From Macrostomum lignano (taxonomy: Eukaryota), in the NCBI GenBank assembly GCA_002269645.1, contig NIVC01000724.1, positions 64,379-106,630 of the forward strand: a stretch of 42,252 bases of DNA, written 5' to 3'. The notes under the pieces were generated by a model. That model did not search any database. It was not told where the DNA came from and worked only from the letters and a program-made list of their open reading frames with translations. Positions 16,727-42,252 of this stretch are shown one piece after another. Numbering within the stretch: position 1 is the first letter of the stretch; every line of letters begins with the position of its first letter. The translations under genes and the position numbers were made by a program.

Positions 16727-16757
<31 letters not shown>

Positions 16758-17624: not shown

Positions 17625-18640
17625 CTGGGCAAATTTCCCATCACGGTCGAAGCCTGAGTGAGAATGCCCAGCAGAGTGAGCAGTCCCAGAGTCACCCTGG
17701 CGGGCACGGCCTCAATGTTGACCCAGAAGTTCAGCCAGCTGACTGTCACGATGAGGATAGAAGGGATGTAGGTCCCAGCAAGGTAGCTGCTCAGCTGCCT
17801 CTCCAGTTTGAACTCCGCCTTGAGGCAGGCGTAGGCGCCAGTGCTGGTGGCGCTGCCTTTGGTGCAGTCGATGGTCTTTGCTTTGCCGGGCGTGTTGAAC
17901 TCGGCAATCTGCATTGAAGTGTCCAGCTCCACCGGTTGTTTGTCCTTGTCCTGCTTCCACTTGAACAGCAGATTCTTGGTTGTGTAACCGTAACTGCCGA
18001 TGTTGACGAAGCAGTTCTGTATGTCCATGGGGAATGTCTGCAGCTGCATCTGGCAGGAGAACTTCATGGTGATCTTCTGCGAGTACAGGATGTCACCGTT
18101 CGGACCCACTCGGATTAGATAATTTGGCTGCGTCATCTTGTGCAGGTAACCCTCTTTTCCGTTGCGAAAGAAAAGGTCTGGCAGCCACAGCTGCTCCTTC
18201 TTGGCCGGTATAGCGATGGAGTCATTGTAGAACTTGAACTGCGGGATATTCTCCCAGCTGAGCCGGTGATCGCGCCAGAACTGCCTCAGGTACATGTCCA
18301 AGCTGAACTCCATATTGATGACGTCGACCTTGTTGATGCTGAGAATTTTCATGTTCACGTCGACTTTAGTCGGTGGCTCAAACGGTTTTCCACCTTCAAC
18401 CAGCGGCGGCTGCGGCTTGCCGCCCATCGTATCAAAAACTTCCACTGGCCGCTGGTGCTTGTTGTAGTTGGTGAAGATTTTCTCAACAATGCGATCTACT
18501 ATGTTGGTGTAGTTGGAGGCCGTGGTGCCCGCCGAGGCCGGCAAGGGCTTCAGCAGCAGCAGCGGCAGCAGCGGCAGCAGCAGCGACAGCGAAAGCTTCG
18601 TGCACCGCCGGTTGCAGTCTGGCGCCGCCGCCGTCGCCAT
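17625..18640 (-). CDS. GluCl-like Cys-loop subunit 5' exon C: signal peptide, whole ECD, M1, M2
   Basis: ATG and hydrophobic leader; WLPDLFFRN; Cys-loop CQMQLQTFPMDIQNC; loop C CTKGSATSTGAYAC; PAR motif before M2 (anion-selective); ends NLP-AG|gtgag. Spliced to 13721-14207 it gives a 500-aa subunit. Confidence 0.93.
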
Positions 18641-20591
18641 GCCGACACTCTCCGCTCGCGGTTGTCCACTTCTGAGTCAGGCTGCGTTGCTGCTTGATTG
18701 TCGGACCCGAAGACTACCTGAATAGCCCTGGTTGATCCCAGAACATTTGATCGGGATTATGACGACGAGGTGATGGTGCTTGGAAGAAGACGGATGCGCA
18801 GTCGCGAGGCCTGCCAGCTTTAGGCGTTTTTAGAGGTCCGGGTAAGTTGAGTTCAGACGGGTACCGGATTGGCACGGTGACTGCCTGCCCCCACTCTGCC
18901 CCGAGTACGCTCGGCCAATGACGGGGCGACCTCTCTCCTTCCCTCAGAATACTGGATGAAAAAGAGGAGTATTTTACACTCGCTGATCTATTATTCGCCG
19001 TGGCTACAATTTTGTTATTTCTAATGAATCCCTGAACCCTTCTTCAGGCTTCAATGTGTCCACGCACCTATTAGAGATTTTATCAACTGCCTGTTTTATT
19101 CCCGCACTAACTTCAGCATCGCGCATCAGCACGACAAAAACCGCGTTGCTGCCATCGCTGTAGAAACGAACTTATGCGATGCTGTCTCTATCTGCACGAA
19201 CTGTTACAATAACACTGTATACAGTTTTATGTCCATCAAGCAACACCGAAGTGTCGCATCTGCTTCTAAGCCACCCGCGGCTCCGCAGCTTAGATTAGTT
19301 GAGATTAAGCGAGAGTTCGCGCAAAATAAAGAGGCCTGAATGACAGGTTAGAGGGAATTAACTAATATTCAGGCAATGGGACATTGTGTGCGCGCGTAAA
19401 TTAACGCGAGGAGAAGAAGCCCAGGTGCGCATGTGCGTGTGTGTGTGTGCAGCACAGGGTGTTACAAAAATGCTGTGTGGTCTTCTCACAGCAGCAGCAG
19501 CTGGTGTCAGTCACACAGCTGATGACAGGCGTAAAGTCAAGCCACTCAGGCTGAAATCACCTTTCCGGTCCAAGGGAGGAACAGAGGCGAGTATGAAGAG
19601 ATGGCTTGGCTGGAGGGACAGGCGTGGAACAAGGGAGAGAGGCAGGGTCGGGTTGAGAGACACGGCGCGGTGTATAGAATTCCGGTTGAGTTGATGCAGC
19701 TGCGTCAATGTTGGGGCCGCGAGGGAAGCTGAAGTCTTCTCTCCTAAAAGTTCCCGAAACTCCTGACATGTAAAAAAAGTATTACAGTGCACAGACAGAC
19801 GGCAGCACGATGGCTATGAATATAGAATCCATTGCCATTAAATGCGCGTTTCACTTGGTCAAGGGAGTTGCAATTTAGTATGAATAATTTGATACACGAG
19901 TCTGGCGAACCGGGAGCCAATGTGCGTGTTTATGCTAAGCATGGACTTCCGCCGAACCCTGCCTAGGAAGGGGTGGGCTCAGGCAAAAGTGTGCTCGACG
20001 GAGCCTTTGGACCAAGGAGACCTGAGACCTGGGACGCGGAACAGTTTTTTAAATTCTGGATCCATTTTCAGGCGTAATGGTTTCAAGCTCAATCGAATGT
20101 CCACCAAATAAACATTTAAAACATGTCAATAGGGGCTCGTAATACGAGCGTATAGTTAAAAAAATTTTAAATGCAAAACCCAAAAATACTGTATGTTCCC
20201 AAACTTCTGCCGAAACTGGCTCGGAGACTTTTCTCTTTAGAGCTTAATCAACTCCCGAAGCTTAGAGAGCAAAAATTTACAAGTTCAGTGAAGCCTATTT
20301 TTATATTTTACAAACTGACGTGCTAAATCACTACTTGTAAGTAGCATATGCAGTATCAGTAACCCTGGTTTCTACTAAATTTGATATCAATAAGGCCGAT
20401 CCGGAATTTAAGTCGAGAGGTTTTTCCAGCTCGCGGATCGCTTGGGTAGCTCAAGAGAGTCAAAGAATTCGAAGATCTGTGGCTCAGTTGTCCGTGGCAA
20501 TTCGAATGGGACACGGATAGCTACTTGTTGGTCCAAGTTACAAGCGTCTGAGCTGTTTAGGGATAGTTTGCATAGCTACGCCTATTCTTAC

Positions 20592-21331
20592 CTGGGCAGC
20601 CAGTTAGCAAAAGTACAAATGTGAGCCAAAATGCACAGCAGCGTTAGTAATAGCAGCAGAGCCAACAGGTAAGGGACAATGTGACGCTTCAGTTTGAATT
20701 CCACTTTCAAGCAAGGATAGAAACCGGATGAGGTAGCGCTGCCTCTTGAACAGTCGATGAGTTCCAGCTCAGCAGGCGCTTGAAACTCGCTAATCTGCAT
20801 CGCGGAGTCTAACTCAATAGCTTTTCTGTATTCTGTGTTGTGCCACCGCAGTAACTGACGATTCGTTGTGTGGCGATGGCTTCCGATGTGAATTCTACAA
20901 TTCTGCGTATCAAATGAAAATGTCTGCAGCTGCATGTGGCAGGAGAACTTCACTGTGGTCTTCTGCGAGTAGAGGACGTTCCCGTTGCGCTGAACCTTGA
21001 TGAGATGGTTCGGCTGAGCCATCTTGTGCTGGTAACCTTCGTTGCCGTTCCGGAAGAACACATCCGGCAGCCACAGCGTGTCCCTCGCGTTCGAAAAGTC
21101 GATGGGATCAAAATAAGATTGGTACTGCCGAAGACTGTCCCAAGCCAGTCGGCGGTCTTGCCAGAACATTCTCAGGAACATTTCGACACTGAACTCCATG
21201 CTGACTGGGTCAATGTTGCTGATTCTCAAAATCTTGATGGTCAAATTCACTTTGACAGGTCCATCTTGATACATTGGCACCTGTTCTTTGTAGTAATCAA
21301 ACTTCCTGTCGAAAATTGGTCCCGGTAACAA
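20592..21331 (-). pseudogene. Divergent GluCl-like 5' exon B: ECD intact, M1 missing, no clear signal peptide or ATG; possibly functional as an atypical isoform
   Basis: WLPDVFFRN, CHMQLQTFSFDTQNC and CSRGSATSSGFYPC are retained. KLKRHIVPYLLA runs directly into the M2-like LLLLLTLLCILAH..NWLP-AG|gtaag. An in-frame TGA lies immediately upstream of 21331. Confidence 0.75.
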
Positions 21332-21573
21332 TCAGGAAAAGATTTTTGTCCCACTTTCGTTCAGAGATTTCAAAACAATTTTTATGGATGATAATTGTAG
21401 AAAATTTGGCACTTGCAAGCGAAATGCTAGCTAATGCTGTGTCCCTAAAAGAATAAGCTGGTTGCTTTGGTCACACTGTCTTCTCTTTATATCTTCGAGC
21501 AATCATTGAGTTATGTGATGGAGCCTTAAGAGATGAGAGGATGCTGACTGACAAATCTGACTCATTCTCATTG

Positions 21574-22024
21574 CACAGGGGCGTCGCCACCGGACGGGGG
21601 GACATGAGGACATGCCCCCCCTCCAGTAAAAGCTATGGGGGGGACATGCTACCCCACCTTGTGACTCGTGGTTGAAATCAATAATTTTGCTTCAGAGCGG
21701 CAAAACATAGCGCCTACTGCGCCAAAATGAGTGCCTGCGGCGCCAAAATGAGTGCCTGCGGCGCTAAAATGAGTGCCTGCGGTGCAAAAATGAGTGCCTG
21801 CGGCGCTAAAATGAGTGCCTGCGGCGCTAAAATGAGTGCCTGCGGCGCCAAAATGAGTGCCTGCGGGGCTAAAATGAGTGCCTGCAGCGCTAAAATGAGT
21901 GCCTGCGGTGCAAAAATGAGCGCTGACGACACCGATTCTGAAAATAATATACATTTAGGAATTTATTCATGTACATGTTCATGTAGAATACACCCACCAT
22001 AAAACCCATGGCGGCGCCCCTGTG
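21574..22024. mobile_element. MITE-like element with ~15-bp TIRs and an internal 21-bp tandem array
   Basis: CACAGGGGCGTCGCC at 21574 and GGCGGCGCCCCTGTG ending at 22024 are inverted with 1 mismatch. About 10 copies of GCCTGCGGCGCTAAAATGAGT lie at 21712-21921. No TSD was found. Confidence 0.7.
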
Positions 22025-24663
22025 ACATTTCAGGTAGTGAATCCATTCCCAGGAAAGACTCCGGAAGGTGTTGTACTGGTGACTACGAAACTATATTAGT
22101 TATCGTTCATTCATTCAAAACAAGTCTGTCTTGTTTCTGTGTCAGCTCAAGTTGTTCGTTGATCCGTCACGGCAAGAATATTGCTGCATCGACAGTTATA
22201 AAAAAGGTGTAAATTCTGTTAGTCAGCTGCGCAGACTGACAAGCACACGGATTTAATTTGTTGAATTGGGTTCAAGTACAAACTTCTTCAAACTTCAGTG
22301 GACAGGCCGACAGCTGACTAGCAAACATTGGCTTATTTTTGTAGCCAAGTCTAGAATTTTCCTCATCAGAATACTGCGCAGTTCCACGAAAGAAGGACTT
22401 GTAAGTTAACTAATGAAGCTTCTAATAAACAATTTTTTGCCTGCGAATTTTTCCTACCATATTGTCCTTTCTGGGAGCCGGCTGCAGCTCAGTTGCTCGA
22501 CTGAGTAAATTCAATTTAAAGACGCTTGGGAAACATTTCTGCTTTTCGTCTGCTGGGTTGAGCAATCCGAATCTGCGACAGAATCGACAGGACGCGAGTG
22601 AACAACCATGGCTCATCGACTTCTTCATCCGGGCAGCTAATTAGAAAAGAAGAATGCCAGGCCTCCGTGTCTGGGGTTCAGATCCAGTTATGGCCTGATT
22701 GAACAAGTTCTACTCATTTACTGTAAGTTTGACTACATTTTTACCAAATCCGTGGGGCTGGACTTACTAATCAAAAATGCATGCCATTCTGAGCCAAACT
22801 CTGCCCCCCAGTAGCCCCTTTAGCAAATCGAAAACCAACTGTAACTCGAGACTAATTTCCATGGACTGCATGGCTAGAATTGGTAAATTGACACCGTATG
22901 CACGGCGACTTGAGCTGTGCGTTGCTCAAGGCATAAGAGGAACCTTTTTTATACACAGCAGGGTCCTAGCTGTGTTCCTGTCAAGACAAGCAATAGTTAT
23001 CACTAACTAAGGGGCTGCTATAGAGAGGATCGATTCAAAAATACTGTAATTAAGCGAGTCTATTCGGTAAGACTTAGCAACTAAGCAACTAAGACAGGGA
23101 ATCTATCCACTCAATTGATAGAACGCGCCTCTTTCTGCTTTTCTGCCAGCCAGAGACGGTTTCGATTGATTTTACGATCTTTTGCAACCGTCTGCTCCTG
23201 CGCTTGAGCTTAGATGCATTATAGCAGAAAGATCTTCTGAGGAGGTATGAGGGGAGGGCATGATGGCCCATTGGAGTGGAAAAGAATTAGCCTTTGATTA
23301 CAGGCCGAGCCACCGATCTCATCGTCACTGAATGCACGGCTCGCTCACGTAGTACGGTACAGGTATTGGCCAAGCGATTTTCGCTGTTTAGTACTATACT
23401 AGCAAGATATGATTACATGTTCCCATATTGTAGAGTATAATAACGGTATTATGGCTTGTTAAGCTACAGAGGCTGCAATCTAAGATCCCCGAATCCCACT
23501 ATCTCCCTATCCTTTCATCAATGGGCTGCGTGTCCATCAATGACAGCTGTTTCTACTGCAGGTTTACAGAGAACATTTCGTTCTTAGGGTTCGATTGTAA
23601 GGCAGAAAGTCGCACGATGTCTGATCACTAATACACGCACCTGTCCCATCTCTGTCAATACATTTAATGTGCACCCCAAGTCAGCAGAGACCGCCGAGTT
23701 TCATTCCATTTGGTAGCGAATATCGTCATGCAGTAATGCAGTTGTCAATGTTGACACAGTGGGGTTAGGTTAGTGCAAACAGCTGGATCGGGGGGGGGCA
23801 TATGTGAGTTTTAAAACCTAATATAAGACAGCAGAAGTTGAAGGTAGCTCATGCACTCCCTATTAGCTACCATCGCAATTCTTTACTCTTACGAGTGCCT
23901 CGTTAGTCTCGGAATGAGACTTTGAGTAGAAAAAAAGTTCAGAGAGTCACGCCGCAAAGGAAGTGAGACAGCCCCCCTGCTGCTAGCCCAGCCTCTGCTG
24001 TCATGGTGGGCGCGCAGCTTTCTTCTTCTCTTTAGTCAAAGTTTAGTCGCAAAAAACGTTAAGAGGCAACGAGGAATGCTCTGACTGCCTGGAGAGTGTG
24101 GCGATGCGTTGAAAACAAGGCCAACCTCCCCCCTCTCTCTCTAATCCCTTCTCCCCAGGCCTGGCAATTAGTGTGAGCAGGCCCGTTGCAACTTTCGGAC
24201 TTTTCTCTGTGAGTCTCTGAGTGACCAGCTGCTTGGAGCAGAGCACGATGAACTGTGCACGTCTGGCGTCTGTGTGTGCGTGCGTGCCCAGAGCCGAGAG
24301 AGACGTGACGCACCAACAAGGGGCACGCGAAACGAAAGCGAAAGTTGAGGAGAGAAAGAGGAGCTCGCTATATAGCAAGAGAAAGAAAGCAAAAGATGTC
24401 GCCGAAGATTTCCTCAAAGTTTCTCTCCGGAGAGGAAGACTTGAAGTTTGGGGATTTGAGTCGAGAGTGCGGGAAGAAAAAAGGTAACGAAGATCGGGAG
24501 AGAGACCTGAGGGGCAGGCCTGAACAGGTCAAGAAGGCCTTCTCTAATTGCGATCAGATTGCCGCCATGTGAGCCTTCCGTTGTGTATTACTTATTCAAG
24601 CAAATTAAAAATAGCACCGAGGTGTCGACTGAGGGCGCATGACTCAGCGAGGCTGACTCTTAC

Positions 24664-25610
24664 CTGGGCAAGTTGTTGATGACTGACATGCCCTGGGTTA
24701 GGATGCCGAGCAGAGTGAGCACGCCGAGGGACACGCGAGCCGGTATGGCCTCAACGCTGATCCAGAAGTTCAGCCAGCTGACTGTCACGATGAGAATCGC
24801 GGGAATGTAGGTGCTGGACAGGTAACTGCCGAGCTGCCTCTCGAGGTTGAAGACAACCAACAGGCAGGCGTAGGCGCCGGTGCTGGTGGCGCTGCCCTTC
24901 GTGCAGTCGATGGTCTCGGCGCTGCTCGGCGTGTTAAACTCCGAGATTTGCATTGTGTCCAGCTCCACTGAGGCTTTATTCTCGTCTCGTTTCCATCGAA
25001 ACAGCAGGTTTCGAGTTGTGTATCCGTAGCTGCCAATATTCACAGTGCAGGTCTGCGTGTCCATCGGGAACGTCTGCAGCTGCATCTGGCAAGCGTACCG
25101 CATTGTAACCTTCTGCGAGTACAGGATGTGCCCGTTCGGCTCAACTCGGATTAGATAATTTGGCTGCGTCATCTCGTGCAGGTAGCCTTGCTTTCCATTG
25201 CGAAAGAAAAGATCTGGCAGCCACAGTTGCTCCTTCTTGGCCGGTATAGCGATGGAGTCATTGTAGAACTTGAACTGCGGGATATTCTCCCAGCTGAGCC
25301 GGTGATCGCGCCAGAACTGCCTCAGGTACATGTCCAGCGTGAACTCCATATTGATGACGTCGACCTTGTTGATGCTGAGAATTTTCATGTTCACTAACAC
25401 GAGTGTCGGGTCTTCCTCCAGTTTGCCGTCCTTGTTCTGCCTGCTGGCCGGCACGGGTCTCTGGTGCTTGTTGTAGTTGGTGAAGATGTGCCCTACGATT
25501 CGGTCCACAATGTTGGTGTAGTTCGGCTTCATTCCAGCTTGGCCTGATGCGGTCCCGAGCATCAGGAGAACCGAAGCGGCAACTAGTGTTGCTAGGCTCA
25601 GCGGCTGCAT
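24664..25610 (-). CDS. GluCl-like Cys-loop subunit 5' exon A: signal peptide, whole ECD, M1, M2
   Basis: ATG at 25610 (MQPLSLATLVAASVLLMLGTASG leader); WLPDLFFRN; CQMQLQTFPMDTQTC; PAR motif; ends NLP-AG|gtaag. Spliced to 13721-14207 it would give 477 aa. Confidence 0.92.
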
Positions 25611-27650: not shown

Positions 27651-28701
27651 TCAAAGAACCTCAGTTAAACTGTTGAATGAAATTTCAGGGATCTTTTGGG
27701 GGAGATAAAAACCTTAAAAAAGTGACTCATTAACTCTGTGCTGCTAAGTAAGCTACGAGCCGTATAAAATCGAAGGCTTAAAAAACTTGAAAATTTAAGA
27801 TTTTGTTTAAACTAGGCTCCGAGGGCAGAATTATATGCATGCGCATACAGGCATTGATGAGGCTCGCTTACAGCCTTCCCAGTAATCCCCCATAGGGATA
27901 ATAATGGAGGGAGATGGGGGTAGCTCTGCCCATACAGAATCTCACAGGCTAAGGTGGCTGTGACTCCCTTATTGAGCCAATATAATATCCTCTTGGCGAG
28001 TTTCACACCTTTGTAATTGGGGGGGGGGGGTGTTTTATTGTCCACAGCCAGCCACTTACTTCTTCAAGCAGCTGTGGCAGTCTGTGTGTGTGAGAGAGAG
28101 TGGCGAGAGTGAGAGTGAATGAGAGAGAAGCATTGTTGCCACAGCTTTTGGCAGGCTGAGGCTAGAATGATGAGGGAAGCTGGCGAGACCGGGGGCTACA
28201 TCAGGGGATAAGGACTAGATGAGGCCTGTGTGTGGGGAGTATTTTGCAAGCTCTAATGATGCGTACAGTGGGATCTCATGAGCGAGCAACTCAAGTTGCC
28301 GTTTCAGTTGAGAAAGCATCCATGGCGTGAATTTGTTGGGCAGGTGCACTAAGATGCGTCAGGCGCCCCCTCCCAGTCTTAGGTGAATGAAGGTTCATTA
28401 GTTATTCATGAGGACTCTGCATGTACCTAACACCCGATTAAATCTTATGAAGAAGGTTTCCCTTACAAAAATTGTTTACAGAGTGCCTACGGGTCTTATA
28501 CTTATCTACCACTGGCAGAAATTGCCTCTAGAAGTTTGATTGAGTTTTCTGCCGAGAACTGAAAAATCCTTCTCAGAATTCTCCTCGTAGTCTCTCTCTC
28601 CTCTCCTTCCCTCTCTCCCCCTTCGTCACCGCTCAATCCAGTTCAGAGCAATCTGCTTTTTTGAAAGTTTCTGACTAAATATTTTTCTGTCCAAAGTTCC
28701 A

Positions 28702-30400
28702 TGTCTAGAATCTCACCTTTATACTGGGAGTCTAGAATCTCACCTTTATACTGGGAGTCTAGAATCTCACCTTTATACTGGGAGTCTAGAATCTCAACCT
28801 TAGACTGGGAGTCTAGAATCTCACCTTTATACTGGGAGTCTAGAATCTCACCTTTATACTGGGAGTCTAGAATCTCACCTTTATACTGGGAGTCTAGAAT
28901 CTCAACCTTAGACTGGGAGTCTAGAATCTCACCTTTATACTGGGAGTCTAGAATCTCACCTTTATACTGGGAGTCTAGAATCTCACCTTTATACTGGGAG
29001 TCTAGAATCTCAACCTTAGACTGGGAGTCTAGAATCTCACCTTTATACTGGGAGTCTAGAATCTCACCTTTATACTGGGAGTCTAGAATCTCACCTTTAT
29101 ACTGGGAGTCTAGAATCTCACCTTTATACTGGGAGTCTAGAATCTCACCTTTATACTGGGAGTCTAGAATCTCACCTTTATACTGGGAGTCTAGAATCTC
29201 ACCTTTATACTGGGAGTCTAGAATCTCACCTTTATACTGGGAGTCTAGAATCTCAACCTTAGACTGGGAGTCTAGAATCTCAACCTTAGACTGGGAGTCT
29301 AGAATCTCACCCTTAGAAGATTGGGAGTCTAGAATCTTACCCTTAGACTGGGAGTCTAGAATCTCACCCTTAGACTTGAAGTCTAGAATCTCACCTTTAT
29401 ACTGGGAGTCTAGAATCTCACCTTTATACTGGGAGTCTAGAATCTCACCTTTATACTGGGAGTCTAGAATCTCACCCTTAGACTTGAAGTCTAGAATCTC
29501 ACCTTTATACTGGGAGTCTAGAATCTCAACCTTAGACTGGGAGTCTAGAATCTCACCTTTATACTGGGAGTCTAGAATCTCACCTTTATACTGGGAGTCT
29601 AGAATCTCACCTTTATACTGGGAGTCTAGAATCTCACCTTTATACTGGGAGTCTAGAATCTCACCTTTATACTGGGAGTCTAGAATCTCACCTTTATACT
29701 GGGAGTCTAGAATCTCACCTTTATACTGGGAGTCTAGAATCTCACCTTTATACTGGGAGTCTAGAATCTCACCTTTATACTGGGAGTCTAGAATCTCACC
29801 TTTATACTGGGAGTCTAGAATCTCACCTTTATACTGGGAGTCTAGAATCTCACCTTTATACTGGGAGTCTAGAATCTCACCTTTATACTGGGAGTCTAGA
29901 ATCTCAACCTTAGACTGGGAGTCTAGAATCTCACCTTTATACTGGGAGTCTAGAATCTCACCTTTATACTGGGAGTCTAGAATCTCACCTTTATACTGGG
30001 AGTCTAGAATCTCACCTTTATACTGGGAGTCTAGAATCTCACCTTTATACTGGGAGTCTAGAATCTCAACCTTAGACTGGGAGTCTAGAATCTCAACCTT
30101 AGACTGGGAGTCTAGAATCTCAACCTTAGACTGGGAGTCTAGAATCTCAACCTTAGACTGGGAGTCTAGAATCTCAACCTTAGACTGGGAGTCTAGAATC
30201 TCACCCTTAGAAGATTGGGAGTCTAGAATCTTACCCTTAGACTGGGAGTCTAGAATCTCACCCTTAGACTTGAAGTCTAGAATCTCACCCTTAGAAGATT
30301 GGGAGTCTAGAATCTTACCCTTAGACTGGGAGTCTAGAATCTCAACCTCAGACTGGGAATCTAGAATCTCACCCTTAGATGATTTGGAATCTAAAATCTC
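28702..30400. repeat. 27-bp minisatellite, roughly 63 units, with variant units; open as a 574-aa ORF (28701-30425)
   Basis: Unit TGGGAGTCTAGAATCTCACCTTTATAC (WESRISPLY) with variants STLD, PLED and PLDLK. Confidence 0.95.
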
Positions 30401-31073
30401 ATCGTTAGATTCGGTATGTTATTAGTTGTCCAGGAAAGCACCACTGCAGAAGCTTGAAAAGACACTTCAAAAAGTACATATAGTTAGTCACCTATTGAAC
30501 ACACGCGTCTCAAATTGAAAATACACTTCAAGCTGAAAAGGGGCCATGCCGAAAATAGCACAAAAAGTTTTGAAAGCGTTTAAACTTTCCAAATTGAATC
30601 AAAAAATTAGAGCTGACTCTGTAACGGGGAAAGAGAGCAATGCTCAACATGTGCTAGCTTTTCACCGCCAACTTTGAGTCAAGTCCTTATAATATGATAG
30701 AGTATTCACAGTATAACAGAATCGAACAGAGACAGAACAAAATGCATGCGATCACGCGACGCAGGCAAAGAGTTCGAGTTGCGCCTCGCGGGACTTCCTA
30801 ATAAGATCTTGATGAGAGTTGCTAGAGCCTTGGCTGAAGCACGTATTGCAGCAGATTGAGGCAGCGGCATGACAGGCCCTTCTGTGCATTTCGCGCCCTA
30901 ATAAGAGCTGGGGTCCATGAGACAGCAATATCACCCCTGAGGGTCAAAGTCTGATTCAATACCATTGCTCGCTGGAACGTGCCATTTGACTATCAGGGAT
31001 GCCAAAATTTTCTTGCAGCTCAACTGACCGAAAGAGTGCTTGTCGATGCAAAAAATTCAATAATCACACAGCC

Positions 31074-31330: not shown

Positions 31331-32412
31331 CCTTACGATAGATATTAACAGACCAACCTTAGCTACTTTTAGCTTGTGGAGCTGACTAATTATTATTTTG
31401 TAATTTTTTCCAACAGCGGGTCCGTGTTCGCTATAGTACGGTGCATTTCACATTTCACATTTCACATATGCAATAGCTGCTATGACATTGATAATGTAGA
31501 GAGCCGTTAGTCATACCGTAATGCGCAACTTAAAGTAATATTCTAATAAAATTAATTTAAACTCGGACTCTATTTTTAGAATGAGTCATGATGAGTCATA
31601 TCTATTTTTAGAAATTCTATTTTTAGAATGAGTCACGTGCAAACAGAAGTGACTCAGAGCCCTACGTAGGACCGACGTTTATTTGATCAAGGAACCGGTT
31701 CTCGGTAGTTTTATTTGCTTAACTCCATATATGGAAATGATCAAACATACGTGACCTAAGTAAATAGCCGATTTTAAACCAGTTTTTTTTCACCAAAATT
31801 TTACTATAAATATAAGCGAAAATCCGAGTAAAAAACTCAGACTCGGAGGGGTCTCAAGGAAGACTTTGGAATACGTTAACCAAGACGACTCATCTCTGAG
31901 AGAAGAAGTCCGGATAGATTGGTAAGCGTTTACCCGATTTAGTTTATTGTTACTATCGCTAATAAGTTGATTAATTGAGTTTACGAGAGCCACTTATTGT
32001 CGACACATTTGAGAAAGGCCTCCTTGTTTCCTAGGATACATTCCTAGAGGATTATAGAGTTGATTTGAGTTATCCGTTACGTTTCGGACGTAACGAAGAA
32101 GACGCCCTTCAGGAGGACCTATTACAGAAAGTTAGAGAATTCAATTGTTCATAATGGCGCACGTTCTATTGTTAATTCCGAGCTGGAGGACCGTCAAGAA
32201 TTCTGATTCGCTCTCGTTTTGGTCGACCTACAGGTAAAGTTAAGGACTCCAAGAAGCAACAGCTGCTCACCGGAACCGGCCGCCACCGCTCATCAAGCTA
32301 GCTAGCCCTACAAGCAACAATACCCCGCCGAAAGTAGTATACGTTTTTTTGACACAAAGCCGATTTCCTTATGGCGAAATACATAGTAAGTACAGGCCCA
32401 AAAAAATGGCAG

Positions 32413-32481
32413 AGTCCGAAATTTCATGTGCACGCAGTCTGAAATTCCATGTGCACGCAGTCTGAAATTCCAAGTGCACGC
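32413..32481. repeat. 23-bp tandem repeat, 3 copies
   Basis: AGTCTGAAATTCCATGTGCACGC at 32413, 32436 and 32459. Confidence 0.9.
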
Positions 32482-32957
32482 TAAATATCTTTTACGCAAC
32501 GTGATTATTCAGACGAATTGCATATCCACCTGTCCAAAATACAAGTAACCGATTCTAGCAATGGTGACACAAACACACTTCAAAGGATTCCATTCAAGAC
32601 AAATTTACTCCAAAGCTATTCACACATTTCAAGTGTTATTGAAATATTGAAAACTTGTGAATATTATCACCCTTTTGAAGAAAGATAGTAAATGATCTAT
32701 TCTTGAGTGCCTATAGAATTTTTGCACCAACTTGAGCAGATGGTTTACAGATACTATGTCAACAACTGCGTCAACATGCTTCTTCTTTATACTATATATA
32801 TATACGAACACACTGACACAGAAAATATTAAATAACTTAAACCAAGTTTACATTATACTACTTGTTCAACTATACTTACATCTTAAGTGAAATGAAGCGA
32901 TCACGTCAGCAGGAATTGGCCGAGCGCTATGTTAAACAAGGTAAGATAATCACCTAC

Positions 32958-33185
32958 TCTAGTTCAGTTTTCTTTTTTAGATTGACTGTTCGCTATAGTT
33001 TAGTTTCTAGATTGATTGTTAGTTCGGTTTCTGTTTAGACCGATCCTCTGTTTGTTCAGTCTCTAGATTGATTGTCTGCTAGTTCGGTTTCTGTTTAGAC
33101 TAATACTCTGCTAGTTCAGAATTTCTAGATTGATTGTCTGCTAGTTCGGTTTCTGTTTAGACTGATTCTCTGCTAGTTCAGTTTC
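32958..33185. repeat. Degenerate ~56-62-bp tandem repeat
   Basis: CTAGATTGATTGT..CTAGTTCGGTTTCTGTTTAGAC recurs at 33007, 33063 and 33125. Confidence 0.8.
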
Positions 33186-33201
33186 TATATACATTGTATA
33201 C

Positions 33202-33753
33202 ATGCACCTATACCAAATTTCCCTCATCTTATCCATTATTATAGCATTCAAGAATGGTTTCTTCACGCGGCCACCTCCAGATCAGTGCAAACGCATTTGC
33301 CACGACACCACCACATCCAATTCTGCTGCAAGAGCATCATATTCTACATCTCTCGCCAGAGTAACCTCGATTCATGTCGAGAGACAGACAACTGAGCTAG
33401 ATCGCATTTACACAAGAACTGATGTTATTCAGTCAATTAGGCAGCAATCGAACCCACGACCAACTGACCAACTGCAGTATGCACCACCACCACCATCACC
33501 AACCAGCTACAATGACCCAACAAAGCAAACTTGCAGTAAGCCTACAAGTACCAAACCAACGACAGCAACTGAAACACCATCATCATCAATTGCTATTTCT
33601 AGCCAAGTTCAACCGCTGCTAAACTCGCCAATTATTGTACAGAAGGACATCAAGTCTGTAAAAGTCTCTCAAATGAGCACAGGCTTCTACCAAGTAGAAT
33701 TAGCAAAGACCTGTAATACAACTCAAGTATTTGAATATTGGGACCTATCTTAA
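33202..33753 (+). CDS. Hypothetical Pro/Thr/Ser-rich protein with possible signal peptide
   Basis: 183-aa ATG ORF in AT-rich DNA with a hydrophobic N-terminus (ISLILSIIIAF). No recognisable domain. Confidence 0.3.
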   Translation: MHLYQISLILSIIIAFKNGFFTRPPPDQCKRICHDTTTSNSAARASYSTSLARVTSIHVERQTTELDRIYTRTDVIQSIRQQSNPRPTDQLQYAPPPPSPTSYNDPTKQTCSKPTSTKPTTATETPSSSIAISSQVQPLLNSPIIVQKDIKSVKVSQMSTGFYQVELAKTCNTTQVFEYWDLS

Positions 33754-35426: not shown

Positions 35427-35434
35427 TATAAATA
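35427..35434 (+). promoter_or_regulatory. Candidate canonical TATA box for the SSB-like gene
   Basis: TATAAATA about 85 nt upstream of ATG 35513. Confidence 0.4.
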
Positions 35435-35512: not shown

Positions 35513-36711
35513 ATGGCAGCTTGCATCAAGACGGAGTCAATTGTACGCTCCGACTCGAGTCCGATTTTTTACGTTGGAGAGCAGTCTACAACCACGACTG
35601 GTTCGTCCTGCCAGTTTCGATCTATTGCGTGGAAACCATCAATCGAGTGTACAAAATGGTACCCAATTATATTGCAAACCAAGGCTCCAATGGAGCTTTT
35701 TCGTGGAATCGCAGAAAGGCCAGAGCTCGATCATCCGTCTTGCAGACACGACTCTCGCGACGCAGTAAGTGTCCAATTTCATCCAGACAGCTGCGATAAG
35801 GAACTCTTCCACTCTCTCCGGTGAGCACCATATTAAATTTATACAATTAATTTTAGGAAACTATATTCATAATTTATATAATGTTTTGCAGTCAAGTCGA
35901 AAAAGGTCTATCGGTCAAGTTGAACGAGATTCAAGATGCTCGACCCTTGGCACGACTAACAAAACCAGCTCATCAGCATGCTAACGACGTCCTCGAGTTT
36001 GTGCCTCAACAATGGCTGGCTATAAAGCCTGCTTACCCTTGTGCCACAATCAGGATCAGCAACGATCATCCACACGGGAAGGAGGTGTCCATTTCCGATT
36101 TCAAAGGTGTCAGCGGTACCTACCAAATGACAGTGCAAGCAACGAGCTTGTATTGTCCAAAAGGCTGCCTCGTCTGGCGCATTACATTCGCTGTGCGCTC
36201 TCTGACACTCATAGAATCTTCCGACAACATGTTGCAGCGCCTCGACATGTTCAAGGGAGTGCTTGCACACCTACCCGCGACCAAGTCAGCAATTAGAAGC
36301 AGGAGTCCGTCCCCAACATCTACCTGTGAGCAAGAAGAAGCAAATGAACAAAGCCTGCAGAATTCAAGCCAGGTGACACCTGCCAAGTCACCTGCAAAGC
36401 GTCGGTCTACCACCACCGTATCGAAGAAGTCGACTACATCGAATGCAGCGCCAGCCTCTATTGAACCACCGCCTAAAAAGCAAGTTCGAAAACGCAGCGG
36501 TGCAAAACAGCAAAACAATTCTGCCGAAGCTGGTGCAGATGGCACAGACTGGGTGGAGGCTCCACCAGCAAAGATCTTGGTGAGTACACCTGCCTCTGGA
36601 ACCAGGGTAGCGTCCAAGGAGACAGCATTTTTAAAGCGTGCTGCTGCGGACGCTACTACAGCTAGCGTGTCTTCATCGGACGACTCGTACAGCAGCTCTG
36701 ATGATGAGTAA
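35513..36711 (+). CDS. Two-exon gene (35513-35820 + 35892-36711, 375 aa), putative T7 gp2.5/NCLDV-like OB-fold ssDNA-binding protein
   Basis: A 71-nt intron GTGAG...TTTTGCAG joins ORF 35513 in frame to ORF 35881 (..HSL-R-QVEKG..). PIILQT.PM..F.GI / KG..YQMTVQATSLY..WRITFAVRSL plus an acidic tail (SSSDDSYSSSDDE) resemble that family. The family call is by eye. Confidence 0.55.
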
Positions 36712-36921: not shown

Positions 36922-37479
36922 CGACTTGTCCTATTAATAGTTACTGCGAGTCTGAAGCTGCACCCGTTTGAAAAATTTGATTTAAAGCAGACCAAACAGA
37001 AGCTACAGACCAGAAACCGGTTTTGCAAACTATTCCTAAGCCGACCAACAATGCTAAAGACAATTTATTCAAATGCTAAAATCCAACTTTATCCAGCAGG
37101 AAAACTAACTATATATGGCTGTAAATCAAATTCTCAGATAGTCTCAGTTTTACGATTTATCAACGACACTATTAATTGTGTAGATTTTGATTCAGTAAAA
37201 ATTCAGAGCAGTACCTATGTCGGCTTTATTGGTCATCTTTGGCCAAAATTCGGTTTCTCTAGTCTAAAAAGATATGCAGGCTACTATTCGAATTATCTGG
37301 TTGGATACGATGCAGAAAATTTCCCACAAGCAGTTTCTGTTAGATCAGCATCAAAACCAAGGCTTTTTTGTAACATATTTTTTTCGAAAAAGTTTGTTAT
37401 TATGGGCGTTCAAAACACTCATGAATTGAATAATATTCTTAACCATGTCAAGGATTTTTTAATCTCTGTTAATAACTAA
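36922..37479 (+). CDS. Divergent TATA-binding-protein-like ORF (two TBP repeats)
   Basis: IQLYPAGKLTIYGCKS resembles LIFSSGKMVCTGAKS, YDAENFPQ resembles YEPELFPG, and IFFSKKFVIMGVQ resembles IFVSGKVVLTGAK. The frame is open upstream of ATG 37051 back to 36922 (LIVTASLK..FDLK resembles NIVSTVNL..LDLK), right after an acceptor-like TTTTAG. Confidence 0.75.
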   Translation, partial: RLVLLIVTASLKLHPFEKFDLKQTKQKLQTRNRFCKLFLSRPTMLKTIYSNAKIQLYPAGKLTIYGCKSNSQIVSVLRFINDTINCVDFDSVKIQSSTYVGFIGHLWPKFGFSSLKRYAGYYSNYLVGYDAENFPQAVSVRSASKPRLFCNIFFSKKFVIMGVQNTHELNNILNHVKDFLISVNN

Positions 37480-37702: not shown

Positions 37703-38440
37703 ATGCCGCGTGCACAATGCCAAATCTGCAGAAAAAAGTTCAGTAATCAAGCCGAGCTGCATGCTCACTCGCATGGTGCTTGTTTTTCACCGCAACGATT
37801 ACTGACCGGATCGCTGCAAAACCTGATCGAAAACCCACCAGATGGGTGGTCCATCGCTTTGCGCGAGTCAGCTCATCGTGGTCGGGTAAATTTTGTCGAA
37901 TTTACTCCCACTCTTGAACAACAAGGCAACAGCTCTGGCGAGTTACTTCCTGGCGAGTTGATTGCGTCTTTAAGAGAACCAATATTTAAAATATTGGAAA
38001 AAATTGGCTCACCCAGTTTATTAATAAGAGTCTGCTTTCACTTGAAAGTGACACTATTTCGACCGAAAACAGCAGCAGACGACAACGATGGCTCGAGCAG
38101 CGAAGAGATCATTTCGGTCTATTTTAATACCAACATTGCGACAATATCATTTGATGAGACGATTGCAAACAGTGACATGCTGTTATCTCCCGAGGCCTAC
38201 AATGACTGGTTCGCACGCGTTATTAATCAGTTGTTAATAAAAATTGACAATTTTCAATCTCGAGGTAGTAATTGGCAATATAGAGCAATCGAGCAGCTAG
38301 ACTTGATGCTCTGCGTTTATCGCAAAAGCCATGCAAGCACACTGTCAACAAATACGTCCCACGGTGGTGTGGGGGCGGGCGGCGGCAGTGGTGGTGGTGG
38401 TGGCGGTGGTGGTGGTGGTGGTGGCGGCGGTGGTGGTGGT

Positions 38441-38472
<32 letters not shown>

Positions 38473-38810
38473 GCGCGGGGAGTCCGGTCCAGTCCGGTCC
38501 GGTCCAGTCCGGTCCGGTCTGGTTAAGCAGCAATCGTTTAAAGTTCCAGTCTCAATCGGTCGCAAAGCTGGAGCAGTACTGCTTCTAAAGCCGCACAGAG
38601 CAGTTTAAAGCATCAAGACTATTTAAGAGTCTTACACAAGCGACAACTTGTGTTTTCGCGCATGCAGTCCATTCGTTCTCGAAAACAGAAAGTTTTTTTT
38701 GATGCAACAAAGAAAACTTGCACTAAGCTTCTTCGATACGAAGCGATCCTGGACAAGTTCAATTAATTCGCTACCCTTTGGACACTGGCACTTGGCTAAT
38801 TAATTAACAA
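37703..38810 (+). pseudogene. Truncated N-terminal region of Polinton-type protein-primed DNA polymerase B (Zn finger plus RGS.W motif), with poly-Gly expansion
   Basis: CQIC..H..C zinc finger. KIDNFQSRGSNWQYRAIEQLDLMLCVYRK resembles Polinton IDEF.ERGSGW..I..LD...Y. After stops at 38606 and 38624 the same frame reads SDNLCF (typical DNKCF motif). No exonuclease or polymerase motifs follow. Confidence 0.65.
38371..38520. repeat. (GGT/GGC)n poly-Gly tract followed by (GTCCG/GTCCA)n
   Basis: Direct inspection. Confidence 0.95.
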
Positions 38811-39095
38811 TATGCTCTGATCTCTTTTGTTGTACAAAGTAATAGCATGCTATAGAAGACTGTAACCCATCATTAATTTTTTCATTGATCATTATTTACA
38901 ATAAATAAATGATACCGGCATTCGTTTAAATTATAATTTTAGCACTTTTTTGTGTTTAATTATTTGAAAAAGTATATTTTTTATAGTTAGATTCTCAAGA
39001 CTAAGCTTGTGTTTGTAGTAGACGTAAATGTAGTGCTATCGTTCATGTTTCAAGAAAAAAAACTTTTTTTTAAACTTTCAGCTACAAGAATCGAC

Positions 39096-39578
39096 ATGAA
39101 TCCCGAGCAGCAGCAGCAACAACAACTAACTGATCGTAAGCTTTTAGTTGAACGTCTATACGATTCGGCAACGATTCCGACCCGAAAAACTGTCGGGTCG
39201 ATCGGGTATGATCTTTGCGCTGGCGTCGATGGTACCATTCCGGCCTACGAGTCCCGGAGTGTGCGAACCGGACTCAAAATTCGCTTACCGCCTGGTACCT
39301 ATGGCAGGATAGCGGGACGTTCCAGCATGGCTCTGCACAGCTTATTTGTTGGCGGTGGCGTAATCGACCCCGACTATACTGGTGAAATCTGTATAGTCTT
39401 GTTTAATTACAGTCCGGAAGACTTTGAGTACTATGCCGGGCTCAGTATTGCACAACTGGTTCTGGAGCAGGCCGTGCTTGCTTCAGTCTATGTGACTGAA
39501 GCAGACAATTCGATTCGGATGATTGAGCCGCCGACCAAGCGGCGCGGCTTTGGCGGCTTTGGCAGCACTGGCCAATAA
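39096..39578 (+). CDS. dut: Trimeric dUTPase
   Basis: All five motifs present: GYDL, GRSS, GVIDPDYTGEI, IAQL, RGFGGFGSTG. Likely ATG at 39096. Confidence 0.95.
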   Translation: MNPEQQQQQQLTDRKLLVERLYDSATIPTRKTVGSIGYDLCAGVDGTIPAYESRSVRTGLKIRLPPGTYGRIAGRSSMALHSLFVGGGVIDPDYTGEICIVLFNYSPEDFEYYAGLSIAQLVLEQAVLASVYVTEADNSIRMIEPPTKRRGFGGFGSTGQ

Positions 39579-39648
39579 GTATAATAATAATAATAAACTG
39601 ATTTTTTTCTTTGGTGATTGGTGCACTATGCGAGAGCTTTGTAAATAC

Positions 39649-39657
39649 TATAAGCAA
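39649..39657 (+). promoter_or_regulatory. TATAAGCAA motif upstream of the PLA2 gene
   Basis: Identical 9-mer 45 nt before ATG 39694; also present at 40812 and 41855. Confidence 0.6.
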
Positions 39658-39693
39658 TTTTAAAAATTTATGCCTAAAATATATGTTGTAAAA

Positions 39694-40113
39694 ATGTCTC
39701 CAGCGAAAGATCGAGGTTTTAAAAAGAAAAAGAAGAGCATTCGTAAAAAGAAGAAATCTATTAGAAAGATTAATAAAAAGCAACAAGGTTATGGTGTCGT
39801 AAATTGGTTAATTAATCATTTACCATTTGAAGCACATTTACCCGGCGGATATCAGTTTTGTGGTCCAGGTACGCAACTGCAAGCTAGGCTAGCAAAAGGA
39901 CAACGAGGAATTAATCGGCTTGACAATTTGTGCATGCTTCACGACGTGGCCTATGATAAAAATTCTGACGTGCAAGAGAGGTTAAAAGCTGATAAGCTAT
40001 TAGAATCTGGTGCACGAGAGATTGCCCACGATCCGTCTACTGGTTGGAAAGAAAAACTAGCTGCGAAGTTGGTTACCAAGGTTATGCAAGTTAAGCAACG
40101 CTTTGGTGCTTGA
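39694..40113 (+). CDS. Parvovirus VP1u-type phospholipase A2 virion protein with Lys-rich N-terminus
   Basis: HLPGGYQFCGPGT (Ca-binding loop), LDNLCMLHDVAY (catalytic HD), ADKLL. ATG at 39694, alternative ATG at 39670. Confidence 0.9.
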   Translation: MSPAKDRGFKKKKKSIRKKKKSIRKINKKQQGYGVVNWLINHLPFEAHLPGGYQFCGPGTQLQARLAKGQRGINRLDNLCMLHDVAYDKNSDVQERLKADKLLESGAREIAHDPSTGWKEKLAAKLVTKVMQVKQRFGA

Positions 40114-40115
40114 AA

Positions 40116-40805
40116 ATGCAGCAGCCATACAATATGCAACTAGCTCACGATTCTACATTTATTATTGCTGGACCTTCAAACTCGGGTAAAACTGAATGGA
40201 CGTTGCGTTTGTTGACTGAACGAAAAGAATTATTTGATAAAAAACCGTGCCGTCTTGTTTGGTGCCATGGATCAAGTTTGAAACCAGACGATCAACAACG
40301 AATTAGAACATGCTGGCAAAAAAGCGGTCTTGACCCTATTGTTTTTGTACCCGAATTCACACCACAGATGATTAATCGTTTTTTACCACACGATTTGGTT
40401 GTTGTTGACGACTTGCAAAGCGAGATTGCTAAGTTGCCAGAATTTACTAGTATGTTTACAAAGCATGCGCATCATATCCCTTTGACTTGTCTGTACCTTT
40501 GTCAAGGTCTTTTTAACAAGTCTGATCCAGAAGCACGCATGCGAAGTTTATCAGCTAGTTATATTTGTCTAACTCGTAGTGTGCGCGATCGAACCACAGT
40601 TGAACATCTCGGTCGACAAATGTATCCGCGTAATAGTAGGTTTCTAGTGAATGTGTATGAAGACGCAACAAATAACAAACCTTTTTCATATTTATTCATT
40701 GACCTGCGGCAAGTGACACCAGATTTTTTACGATTGAGAACAGGAATATTTTCTGGTGATGAACAAGTTGTCTATACTCGTGAATGTGATGCAAAGTTTG
40801 TGTAA
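40116..40805 (+). CDS. FtsK/HerA-family (A32-like) genome packaging ATPase
   Basis: Walker A GPSNSGKT, Walker B LVVVDDLQ, and the Polinton-typical H..LCQ.LF..R..S.SASY..L.R..RD / PFSYLFIDL...RLRTGIF. Confidence 0.93.
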   Translation: MQQPYNMQLAHDSTFIIAGPSNSGKTEWTLRLLTERKELFDKKPCRLVWCHGSSLKPDDQQRIRTCWQKSGLDPIVFVPEFTPQMINRFLPHDLVVVDDLQSEIAKLPEFTSMFTKHAHHIPLTCLYLCQGLFNKSDPEARMRSLSASYICLTRSVRDRTTVEHLGRQMYPRNSRFLVNVYEDATNNKPFSYLFIDLRQVTPDFLRLRTGIFSGDEQVVYTRECDAKFV

Positions 40806-40811
40806 TATTAT

Positions 40812-40820
40812 TATAAGCAA
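40812..40820 (+). promoter_or_regulatory. TATAAGCAA motif upstream of the penton gene
   Basis: 51 nt before ATG 40863. Confidence 0.6.
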
Positions 40821-40862
40821 ATTATAAACTGTTGTCAATATTAGTTTGTGTTTTATTTCAAA

Positions 40863-41852
40863 ATGAGTTTTTACGTTTTTTTGCCGTCAAACGATATCAG
40901 TTACGAAACCAACTCGCCTAATGAATTTCGAGTGCGACTAACTGAACCAATAAATTTATTGAACGGATTCTTCGAGGTTGCACTAGTTGAATTACTGTGC
41001 CATGGAGCAATTACGACGCCAAATGCTCATCGTGAGCGTCGATTTGAAGTTCCATATTTTGCGGACATTGACTCAATAATACGATTAAAGAAAAACTATT
41101 GGGGTCGTGTTTGGGCAGAGGCAGACTTGGATGCTTACGTTTCCTGGCAACCGTCTGGTACAGATGAAAAATTTGCCTGGCTTTTACGAAATTCAGGCGA
41201 AAAAACTATTGGATTAGAACTACCAGTTACATTTATGGACGCTTTCAAATTTGACTCTTGGAAGAAACTTTCTGGACTTGTCTCGGAAAAATTATCAAAA
41301 CCTGCCGCTGGTAGTGTACAACCACCGGATGGTTCATACTTGGATTTGATAAAAAGTCTCGACAATACTCTAGCGCTAGTACCTGAGAACTATTATGTTT
41401 TTTATTGTGTTCTATCGCCTGGTGAAGCTATACGACTTGTTTCGCATGGAGACTATCTTCGAAAAACGGAAGGAGAAGTGTACATCAAAGTACACCAATA
41501 TTGGTTGAGAAATCGTGTTTGGCGCATTAACAAAACCTACTTGGATGCTGTGCTACCTTCTCCGATGCCTAGTAAAACGGTTTACATGTACTGTTACACA
41601 GATATAATCGAGTATCAAGCAGTGGGAAGTACATCAGTACCGTTGCTTCGAGTTGTGGAACTCCAACAAAAGAAAAACGGAGAACTTATACGCGATAGCA
41701 GTGCATTGCAAACACCCTACTACTTGAAAACAAATCGACAACAAATTCACGAGATTTCGATTCGACTATCGGACCAGCGCGGAAAACCGTTTAATTTTGA
41801 TCCGGGAGCACACGTTGTTGTCGTACTGCATTTTAAACATAGGTCGGACTAA
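40863..41852 (+). CDS. Minor capsid protein (penton, Polinton PX-like)
   Basis: N-terminal FYVFLPSN..N.PNEFRVRL.EPI.L..FEVALVEL. C-terminal YMYCYTDIIEYQ.VG..VPLLRVV..PYY..I.I.L.DQ.G.P..F..VVVVLHFK. Confidence 0.85.
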   Translation: MSFYVFLPSNDISYETNSPNEFRVRLTEPINLLNGFFEVALVELLCHGAITTPNAHRERRFEVPYFADIDSIIRLKKNYWGRVWAEADLDAYVSWQPSGTDEKFAWLLRNSGEKTIGLELPVTFMDAFKFDSWKKLSGLVSEKLSKPAAGSVQPPDGSYLDLIKSLDNTLALVPENYYVFYCVLSPGEAIRLVSHGDYLRKTEGEVYIKVHQYWLRNRVWRINKTYLDAVLPSPMPSKTVYMYCYTDIIEYQAVGSTSVPLLRVVELQQKKNGELIRDSSALQTPYYLKTNRQQIHEISIRLSDQRGKPFNFDPGAHVVVVLHFKHRSD

Positions 41853-41854
41853 TT

Positions 41855-41863
41855 TATAAGCAA
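41855..41863 (+). promoter_or_regulatory. TATAAGCAA motif upstream of the GGFLP core-protein gene
   Basis: 53 nt before ATG 41908. Confidence 0.6.
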
Positions 41864-41907: not shown

Positions 41908-42252
41908 ATGAGCGAACTAACAGAAAAAGGAAAACAAAATGCTCGCTCATTGTGTCAGTGTGCTTTTTTACTACAAATTGTTTATCGGCTAAAGCATCCA
42001 AAGCAGAGAAAAAGTTTTTTACAAACACTTTCAGAGTCGGAGATACGATGTCTAGTAGACTTTCTGTTTAATATTATTAGTGGACGTATTAAAATTAGTA
42101 ACTGTAACAAAAGACGACTTGAGAAGCATCGCAGATATATACGCCAGCTTTTGGAACAGAAGACTCCAATTACTGCAAAAAGGAAAATACTTGTCCAACA
42201 CGGAGGATTTTTACCTTTTTTGGCTCCAATTATTGCCGCTCTACCTGCTATA
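41908..42252 (+). CDS. Polinton small core/virion protein (PW or adenovirus pX-like), truncated by the window end
   Basis: Not in the ORF track because it has no stop in the window. MSELTEKG..KQRKSFLQTLSESEIRCLVDFLFNIISG..RLEKHRRYIRQL..KRKILVQHGGFLPFLAPIIAALPAI; the GG|FLP..IIAA end resembles adenovirus pX. Confidence 0.8.
   Translation, partial: MSELTEKGKQNARSLCQCAFLLQIVYRLKHPKQRKSFLQTLSESEIRCLVDFLFNIISGRIKISNCNKRRLEKHRRYIRQLLEQKTPITAKRKILVQHGGFLPFLAPIIAALPAI

Follow-up and report, generated by a model that had tools for sequence, protein, structure and literature searches.

Six genes of the virion and integration cassette of a Polinton-like element in the Macrostomum lignano genome lie behind a shared box, TATAAG(C/T)A, which we interpret as a noncanonical TATA-type box. 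With a probability of roughly 60%, this box is bound by a TBP-fold protein that the element itself encodes and serves as a late switch that works through host RNA polymerase II. The interpretation draws on the fold of the protein, its remodeled DNA face, the lineage-specific boxes of related elements, and the lack of the box in a lineage without a TBP. The window, by which we mean the whole stretch of DNA that was analyzed, is 42,252 nucleotides of contig NIVC01000724.1 (positions 64,379 to 106,630, forward strand).

Judged by its sequence, the element that carries these genes is Polinton/Alpha-adintovirus-like. It is bounded by terminal inverted repeats, as Polintons/Mavericks (Alpha adintovirus-like) are. 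We searched the 764-Mb assembly (5,269 contigs) and examined four runs (all contigs). The 5' limit of the element is position 32333, where loose ends were found in two of the four runs, and its 3' part is cut by the contig end, which is also the end of the window. An identical copy, L029, supplies the rest of the cassette in the order 229-aa gene, small open reading frame (ORF), rve-chromo integrase, 152-aa gene, 440-aa capsid, and protease; the capsid identities we assume from gene order. The L029 integrase is retrovirus-like, with rve (33.7 bits) and Chromo domains, and the virion module has PLA2 and Adeno_PX matches above the cutoff and a weak protease match (E = 0.038). The left end and the genes from the DNA polymerase onward are as follows.

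32333..32420, plus strand, left terminal inverted repeat, which starts AGTAGT and matches the right end of copy L029 in reverse complement
37703..38608, plus strand, truncated DNA polymerase gene, of which an N-terminal stub with a polyglycine tract remains; the window copy lacks most of PolB
39045..39578, plus strand, dUTPase (Pfam PF00692, 1.5e-29)
39694..40113, plus strand, PLA2-like virion gene (Pfam PF08398, 3e-09)
40116..40805, plus strand, presumed packaging ATPase, labeled from gene order; a Walker A motif is visible and there is no significant Pfam family
40863..41852, plus strand, ORF that we take to be the penton/minor capsid gene by its place in the Polinton gene order; it had no match in Pfam
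41908..42252, plus strand, GGFLP core protein gene, truncated at the contig end (27.8-bit match to Adeno_PX, PF05829, in the complete copy L029)

Passages of PMC8502044 describe the same AGTAGT terminal repeats, rve-chromo integrase, PolB, and PLA2 in Alpha adintoviruses, Mavericks, and Polintons, and the same cassette of pX-like core, ATPase, protease, and capsid. A capsid search defined subfamilies A to E, at about 100, 80, 75, 70, and 66% identity, plus more distant lineages, and our counts use one representative per subfamily. Related copies have frames of 1,276 to 1,478 aa at the place of the stub, which, from their size and position rather than a Pfam scan, are presumably PolB. The assembly contains 28 near-identical matches to the stretch 39560-40900, an inflated count (the host TBP also appears three times); with the PolB stub, this repeated stretch may represent an amplified nonautonomous family. 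Beyond this genome, there were no relatives in viral contigs or phage records, a metagenome search returned three short contigs (1.2 to 2.8 kb), and three TBP-like proteins were found, which came without genomic context.

The sequence-only reading had reported a 9-mer, TATAAGCAA, before the PLA2, penton, and core genes, and a near match before the ATPase gene.

39649..39657, plus strand, late-type box TATAAGCAA before PLA2; exact in four of five subfamilies, TATATGCAA in the fifth
40091..40098, plus strand, near match TTAAGCAA, within PLA2 codons and outside the box class
40812..40820, plus strand, late-type box before the penton gene; TATAAGC exact in 5/5 subfamilies, at 46 to 54 nt
41855..41863, plus strand, late-type box TATAAGCAA before the core protein gene; exact in 5/5 subfamilies, at 43 to 88 nt

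The 9-mer occurs exactly three times in the window, at 39649, 40812, and 41855, always on the plus strand and nowhere else, just as had been seen by eye, and the distances of 45, 51, and 53 nt to the ATGs at 39694, 40863, and 41908 are correct. Three copies compare with 0.33 expected, and 1 of 100 shuffles reached three. With one mismatch allowed, there were 10 matches against 12 expected. Because the motif had been picked by eye and shows no excess with one mismatch, this window-only evidence is weak and post hoc, and we therefore tested relatives. The host part of the window (62,980 nt, both strands) has no copy of the 9-mer and one TATAAGC, and no sense-strand TATAAG occurs in the window element between its left end and the dUTPase gene. 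An in-frame ATG lies at 39670, 21 nt behind the first box. The near match TTAAGCAA is indeed at 40091, but it spells Val-Lys-Gln codons of PLA2, and only two of five subfamilies have a TAAG 45 nt or less from the ATPase ATG; we rejected the near match as a box.

Across the five subfamily modules, the motif proved to be a real class, although its conserved unit is TATAAG(C/T)(A/T) and not the 9-mer. TATAAG stands well above background, with 33 sense occurrences against 2 antisense and about 6.4 expected, and it ranks first among hexamers in four subfamilies and shares first place in the fifth. It occurs in 32 of 50 upstream windows. In the held-out subfamilies B to E, 18 of 40 windows (-35 to -100) contained it against 2.1 at random, and none of 20,000 draws exceeded 10; since the subfamilies are homologous, these counts are not independent draws. 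Fourfold (silent) sites in the capsid gene are saturated, with an identity of only 23 to 36% between subfamilies, and the flanks of the box are near background.

Six genes carry TATAAG(C/T) upstream on the sense strand: PLA2, penton, core, the small ORF, the 152-aa gene, and the major capsid gene. Over six genes and five subfamilies, the word is exact in 27 of 30 cases, the others being two TATATGC and one TTTAAGT. Position 7 is C in 23 of the 27 exact sites and T in 4. Canonical TATATAAG is at none of the 27, and A stands at -1 once, in CA-TATAAG. The substitute TATATGCAA was found in three copies (two among the 30 cases plus a second B copy). Both variant words, TATATGCAA and TTTAAGT, were picked after being seen. 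TATATG(C/T) occurs eight times in the modules, and its three TATATGCAA all lie before the six genes; TTTAAG(C/T) occurs 11 times and is weak as a substitute. The box is conserved and strand specific, mostly 40 to 60 nt before the ATG. The small ORF (57 to 99 aa; L029 3871-4059, before the integrase) has its own box upstream in 5/5 subfamilies; the ORF begins with an amphipathic segment and contains a Cys-Cys motif. The penton box is intergenic or falls in different reading phases among subfamilies. The sequence-only reading had proposed looking before the major capsid and protease genes beyond the window. The major capsid gene does have a box in 5/5 subfamilies, 124 to 165 nt upstream, inside the preceding gene, where it reads T+ATA+AGC in every case, with varying residues before it. 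The protease gene does not, since its upstream TATAAGGAA is coding (Tyr-Lys, and TATAAA in one subfamily), and we rejected this site. In 4/4 cases, the 152-aa-gene box is also the last Tyr-Lys-stop of the integrase, and it is inseparable from coding. Elsewhere, boxes were found for the ATPase gene in 1/5 subfamilies, for the 229-aa gene in 1/5, and for the integrase in 0/5, and the dUTPase gene has a late-type box in subfamilies D and E. No initiator consensus was found downstream of the box in the five modules. These comparisons suggest with high confidence that the motif is real and selected, and they make promoter function very likely. The coordinated promoter class that had been proposed is thus well supported over five subfamilies, as a set of candidate promoters.

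We then turn to the gene that would supply the reader of this box.

35427..35434, plus strand, canonical TATA box TATAAATA, 86 nt before the ATG at 35513; a putative early promoter
35513..35820, plus strand, exon 1 of the first (SSB-like) gene, an ORF with a homologous frame in all subfamilies
35892..36711, plus strand, exon 2 of the SSB-like gene; the SSB label is only a lead
36580..36585, plus strand, phase-0 splice donor GTGAGT in the SSB-like frame, a predicted alternative donor
36922..37479, plus strand, TBP-fold exon, 185 aa (Pfam TBP, 31 bits), with a conserved pyrimidine-YAG acceptor ahead

The first gene lies behind a canonical TATA box and is transcribed and spliced. A GT..AG joint, 35819>35891 (cut +1), links exon 1 to the SSB-like frame in three of four runs, so the box at 35427, earlier assigned to the SSB-like frame, is there as claimed but belongs to the upstream exon. 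At the same place, subfamilies B to E have TATAAAAG, TATATAAG, or TATAAAAT. Among six copies (TATAAATA, TATAAAAG twice, TATATAAG twice, and TATAAAAT), the TATA box is canonical in five and a one-base variant in the sixth. The top atlas hit of exon 2 (0.92) is a viral cluster, 10% of whose members carry DUF2738, and its fold model is of low confidence (pLDDT 52, best Z 2.5).

The TBP-fold exon has the two-repeat saddle of the TBP family by Pfam, model, and Foldseek: the model has a pLDDT of 93.9 and a TM score of 0.73 to both yeast and human TBP. The frame at 36922-37476 is present in all five subfamilies, at 40 to 46% identity. We numbered residues through the host TBP, which is colinear with yeast TBP 64-239. 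Like cellular TBP/TRF (PF00352), the element protein keeps F190, F207, and the stirrup acids (E186 as D130, E188 as E132); it differs from them in being only about 20% identical, in a shortened first stirrup, and in the changes L114 to Q55, F116 to Y57, and L205 to N151. Residues Q55, Y57, D130, E132, F134, N151, and F153 are invariant in five proteins with 40 to 44% identity to the window's. A change at one of these positions, L114F in yeast TBP, is said to read TATAAG (Arndt et al., in 1994). Of the four intercalating Phe and two Asn of cellular TBP, F116 is Tyr, and F99, N69, and N159 have no clear counterpart. A table in PMC2265533 lists F116Y and T112K as DNA-binding-null changes in yeast TBP.

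The first Met of the TBP-fold frame is residue 44 in the window and residue 21 to 44 over the copies, inside the fold. A phase-0 GT(G/A)AG donor lies 129 to 153 nt before the first-gene stop in 7/7 copies of the five subfamilies, preceded by a similar Pro-Pro-x-Lys-x-Leu stretch, and a phase-0 pyrimidine-YAG acceptor lies at the fold start, also in 7/7. The predicted donor-to-TBP joint is absent among the joints of the four runs (contigs), and a weak search for longer forms of the protein found none. The simplest reading of this arrangement is that the TBP would be an alternatively spliced fusion with the N-terminal part of the first (SSB-like) protein, made from the canonical promoter. In subfamily C, a P-loop kinase-like gene shares one frame with the TBP domain (469 aa); such a gene lies between the TBP and PolB genes in subfamilies B to E (L010, L060, L063, and L065) and is missing in the window's family.

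In the proposed mechanism, host TBP at the canonical box would first produce the viral TBP, and an alternative splice from the donor inside the first gene to the TBP exon would make the SSB-like-TBP fusion. The viral TBP, in which Gln and Asn replace the two specificity leucines (yeast L114 and L205) and the acidic stirrup is kept, would then bind TATAWGCA and recruit TFIIB/Pol II, and transcription would proceed from about 30 nt downstream. The box-less ATPase, 229-aa, integrase, and protease genes would be second cistrons of these messages. Several features speak against this reading: the protein has no clear equivalents of N69, F99, and N159, the dUTPase gene has a box in some subfamilies, and the 152-aa-gene site overlaps coding sequence.

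The strongest alternative, which we consider unlikely although a genuine contender, is that the box is a weak TATA for host TBP (or a host TRF), made conditional through template amplification or an activator, with the TBP-fold protein acting as a decoy, a repressor of host or early promoters, or a replication factor. Cellular TBP tolerates G6 and T5 to some degree, and PDB entries exist for TBP with G at position 6 and with T at position 5. The element protein lacks several of the residues that contact DNA, and passages of PMC6590836 indicate that TATT boxes can recruit cellular TBP too. One lineage with a TBP-like frame even uses canonical TATAAATA for its virion genes. However, this alternative leaves unexplained why G6-C7 is near-invariant while the early genes keep canonical boxes, why lineages have boxes of their own, and why the changed DNA-face residues are invariant.

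Other Polinton lineages in the genome bear on this choice. The second TBP-bearing lineage (L085, L091, L093, L095, and L097) has its own TBP-like gene (188 to 196 aa) and a different box, YTTAAGAA; TTAAGAA occurs before 8/10 and 7/10 genes at similar spacing. Its TBP gene itself lies 74 to 80 nt behind this box, and its first gene, which we take to be PC4-like, lies behind a canonical TATA. A third lineage (L069, L075, L053, and L055; capsid identity, 30 to 32%) has a very divergent TBP-like frame, for which reason we dropped it as a TBP-less control. It has TATAAATA before 5/7 virion genes in each of two copies and TATATAAG before the first genes, and no PolB was found within the stretches fetched. 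The fourth lineage (L102, L103, and L107; G000 C274 and C27) had no TBP hit in 1,079 frames (best E, 0.66), and neither TATAAG (0/11) nor TATAAA (0/11) was found in the windows of 11 genes pooled from its three loci. It is multicopy, with at least 117 integrase matches. The comparison fits a pairing of factor and box, with this lineage as the single TBP-less control. Most of the 11 genes have an A-rich run right before the ATG (for example, TAAAAA-ATG; TAAAAATG-like junctions). Such runs resemble the late starts of poxviruses and may hint at a cytoplasmic helper in that lineage.

A more far-reaching version of the element-TBP reading is that several Polinton lineages might each have a private late code, made up of an element-encoded TBP of reprogrammed specificity and a box to match (TATAWGC, YTTAAGAA, or TATAAATA), with the TBP here spliced onto a single-stranded DNA-binding protein. 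We regard this as possible, with the odds somewhat against it. The third lineage uses TATAAATA, which host TBP can read, so a TBP-bearing lineage need not have a noncanonical box, and private codes do not hold throughout. If the idea is right, the fusion would be a one-protein device tying late transcription to replicating DNA.

The closest known parallel is the late system of herpesviruses, whose viral TBPs include EBV BcRF1 and HCMV UL87 besides KSHV ORF24. By the parts of PMC12529657 and PMC6590836 that treat them, viral TBPs of beta- and gammaherpesviruses use TATTWAA late promoters. KSHV ORF24 is described in PMC12529657 as a 752-aa protein in a six-member complex that keeps N69, F99, and N159 at 100%, and Table 1 of that paper gives polar Ser at yeast L114 and L205. 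The element protein is likewise a TBP mimic with a polar DNA face (Q55 and N151 against S471 and S560 of ORF24). As far as these sources describe the herpesvirus system, the likeness lies in a virus-encoded TBP fold with polar residues at L114/L205, in canonical TATA for early genes with a short noncanonical box for virion genes, and in host Pol II, which is presumed here. In contrast, the element's box is TATAWGC and not TATT, and its protein is a single 185-aa TBP domain, with a predicted splice fusion to the SSB-like protein and without N69, F99, and N159. No partner activators were recognized and there are no spare genes for five partners of the ORF18/30/31/34/66 type; the element is an integrating Polinton. 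By analogy, the element may work like the herpesvirus late system without being a member of it.

Short motifs also coordinate the genes of small Polinton-like elements among virophages and PLVs (mavirus and Gezel-14T), but in the published descriptions covered here a helper giant virus supplies the machinery, whereas our element carries its own candidate factor. In PMC8502044, "promoter" occurs 0 times, and the single mention of TBP is in a legend that concerns viruses of nonanimal eukaryotes. The literature on Polinton TBPs or late promoter motifs, in the portions covered (including PMC8502044, PMC11296320, and PMC11161782), has no such pair; supplements may list TBP-like genes. The system bears on the timing of gene expression in animal Polintons and on their possible need for a helper virus. 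If the element-TBP reading is true, it would argue that TBP-bearing lineages are autonomous nuclear viruses with an early/late program reached independently of herpesviruses, and they would offer a testable factor-promoter pair and natural TBPs with changed specificity. TBP-bearing and TBP-less lineages in one genome suggest two lifestyles side by side.

A second alternative is that the core is a baculovirus-type DTAAG start for the RNA polymerase of a nudivirus-like helper, with the element as a satellite. The sequence-only reading had drawn the DTAAG comparison, which our results do not support. TATAAG does contain ATAAG, the second lineage's box contains TTAAG, and late baculovirus transcription starts within A/G/TTAAG according to passages of PMC9927509; adintovirus particles were also copurified from baculovirus-infected insect cells, as a passage of PMC8502044 reports. 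Most sites here share the TAAG core, but against the DTAAG promoter as PMC9927509 describes it in part, the element's box has a fixed TA/TATA prefix. The TATATGCAA sites in three copies lack TAAG, so the core is not invariant, and the third lineage lacks TAAG as well. The substitution falls at position 5, which in a TATA box takes A or T, and it destroys TAAG. Since TATATGCAA keeps the TATA shape and loses TAAG, it agrees better with a box of the TATA type. There is no enrichment of other DTAAG words (AATAAG, 5; GATAAG, 7; CATAAG, 2; GTAAG, 20 versus 15 antisense) against 33 for TATAAG. Searches for LEF-8 and PIF2 gave no match, with the controls silent as well. At 6 of 29 sites, nonproductive ATGs fall in the first 28 nt after the box, which also argues against a start within it. 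Over all positions, there were 15 such ATGs in 870 up to +35 and 1 in 993 beyond (P = 1e-4 at this post hoc cut); since the cuts at +25, +28, and +30 are not significant, the pattern is only a hint of a downstream start. Altogether, we consider a helper-read DTAAG start improbable. Least probable of all, at very long odds, is that the repeats are by-products of codons, stops, or 3'-end signals at gene junctions: this would suit the protease site (Tyr-Lys codons, TATAAA in one subfamily), the 152-aa-gene site (Tyr-Lys-stop), and the many boxes directly after a preceding stop, but the major-capsid site is midgene and keeps T+ATA+AGC in 5/5 despite saturated silent sites, the PLA2 and small-ORF sites are intergenic, the penton site is noncoding or in two phases, and the PLA2 box keeps its spacing to the ATG that follows.

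Some minor observations concern the rest of the window. A separate repeat-like stretch (31498-32332) adjoins the element's left end and contains TATAAATATAAGCG at 31805; the TATAAG at 31811 is outside the element. Near the left end, a GT..AG joint at 32938-33243, found in 4/4 runs, gives a 183-aa ORF a short first exon. Farther out, frames labeled by eye as host ligand-gated ion channel-like cluster on the minus strand (13721-25610), and a 21-nt tandem repeat (28701-30425) forms a 574-aa open frame.
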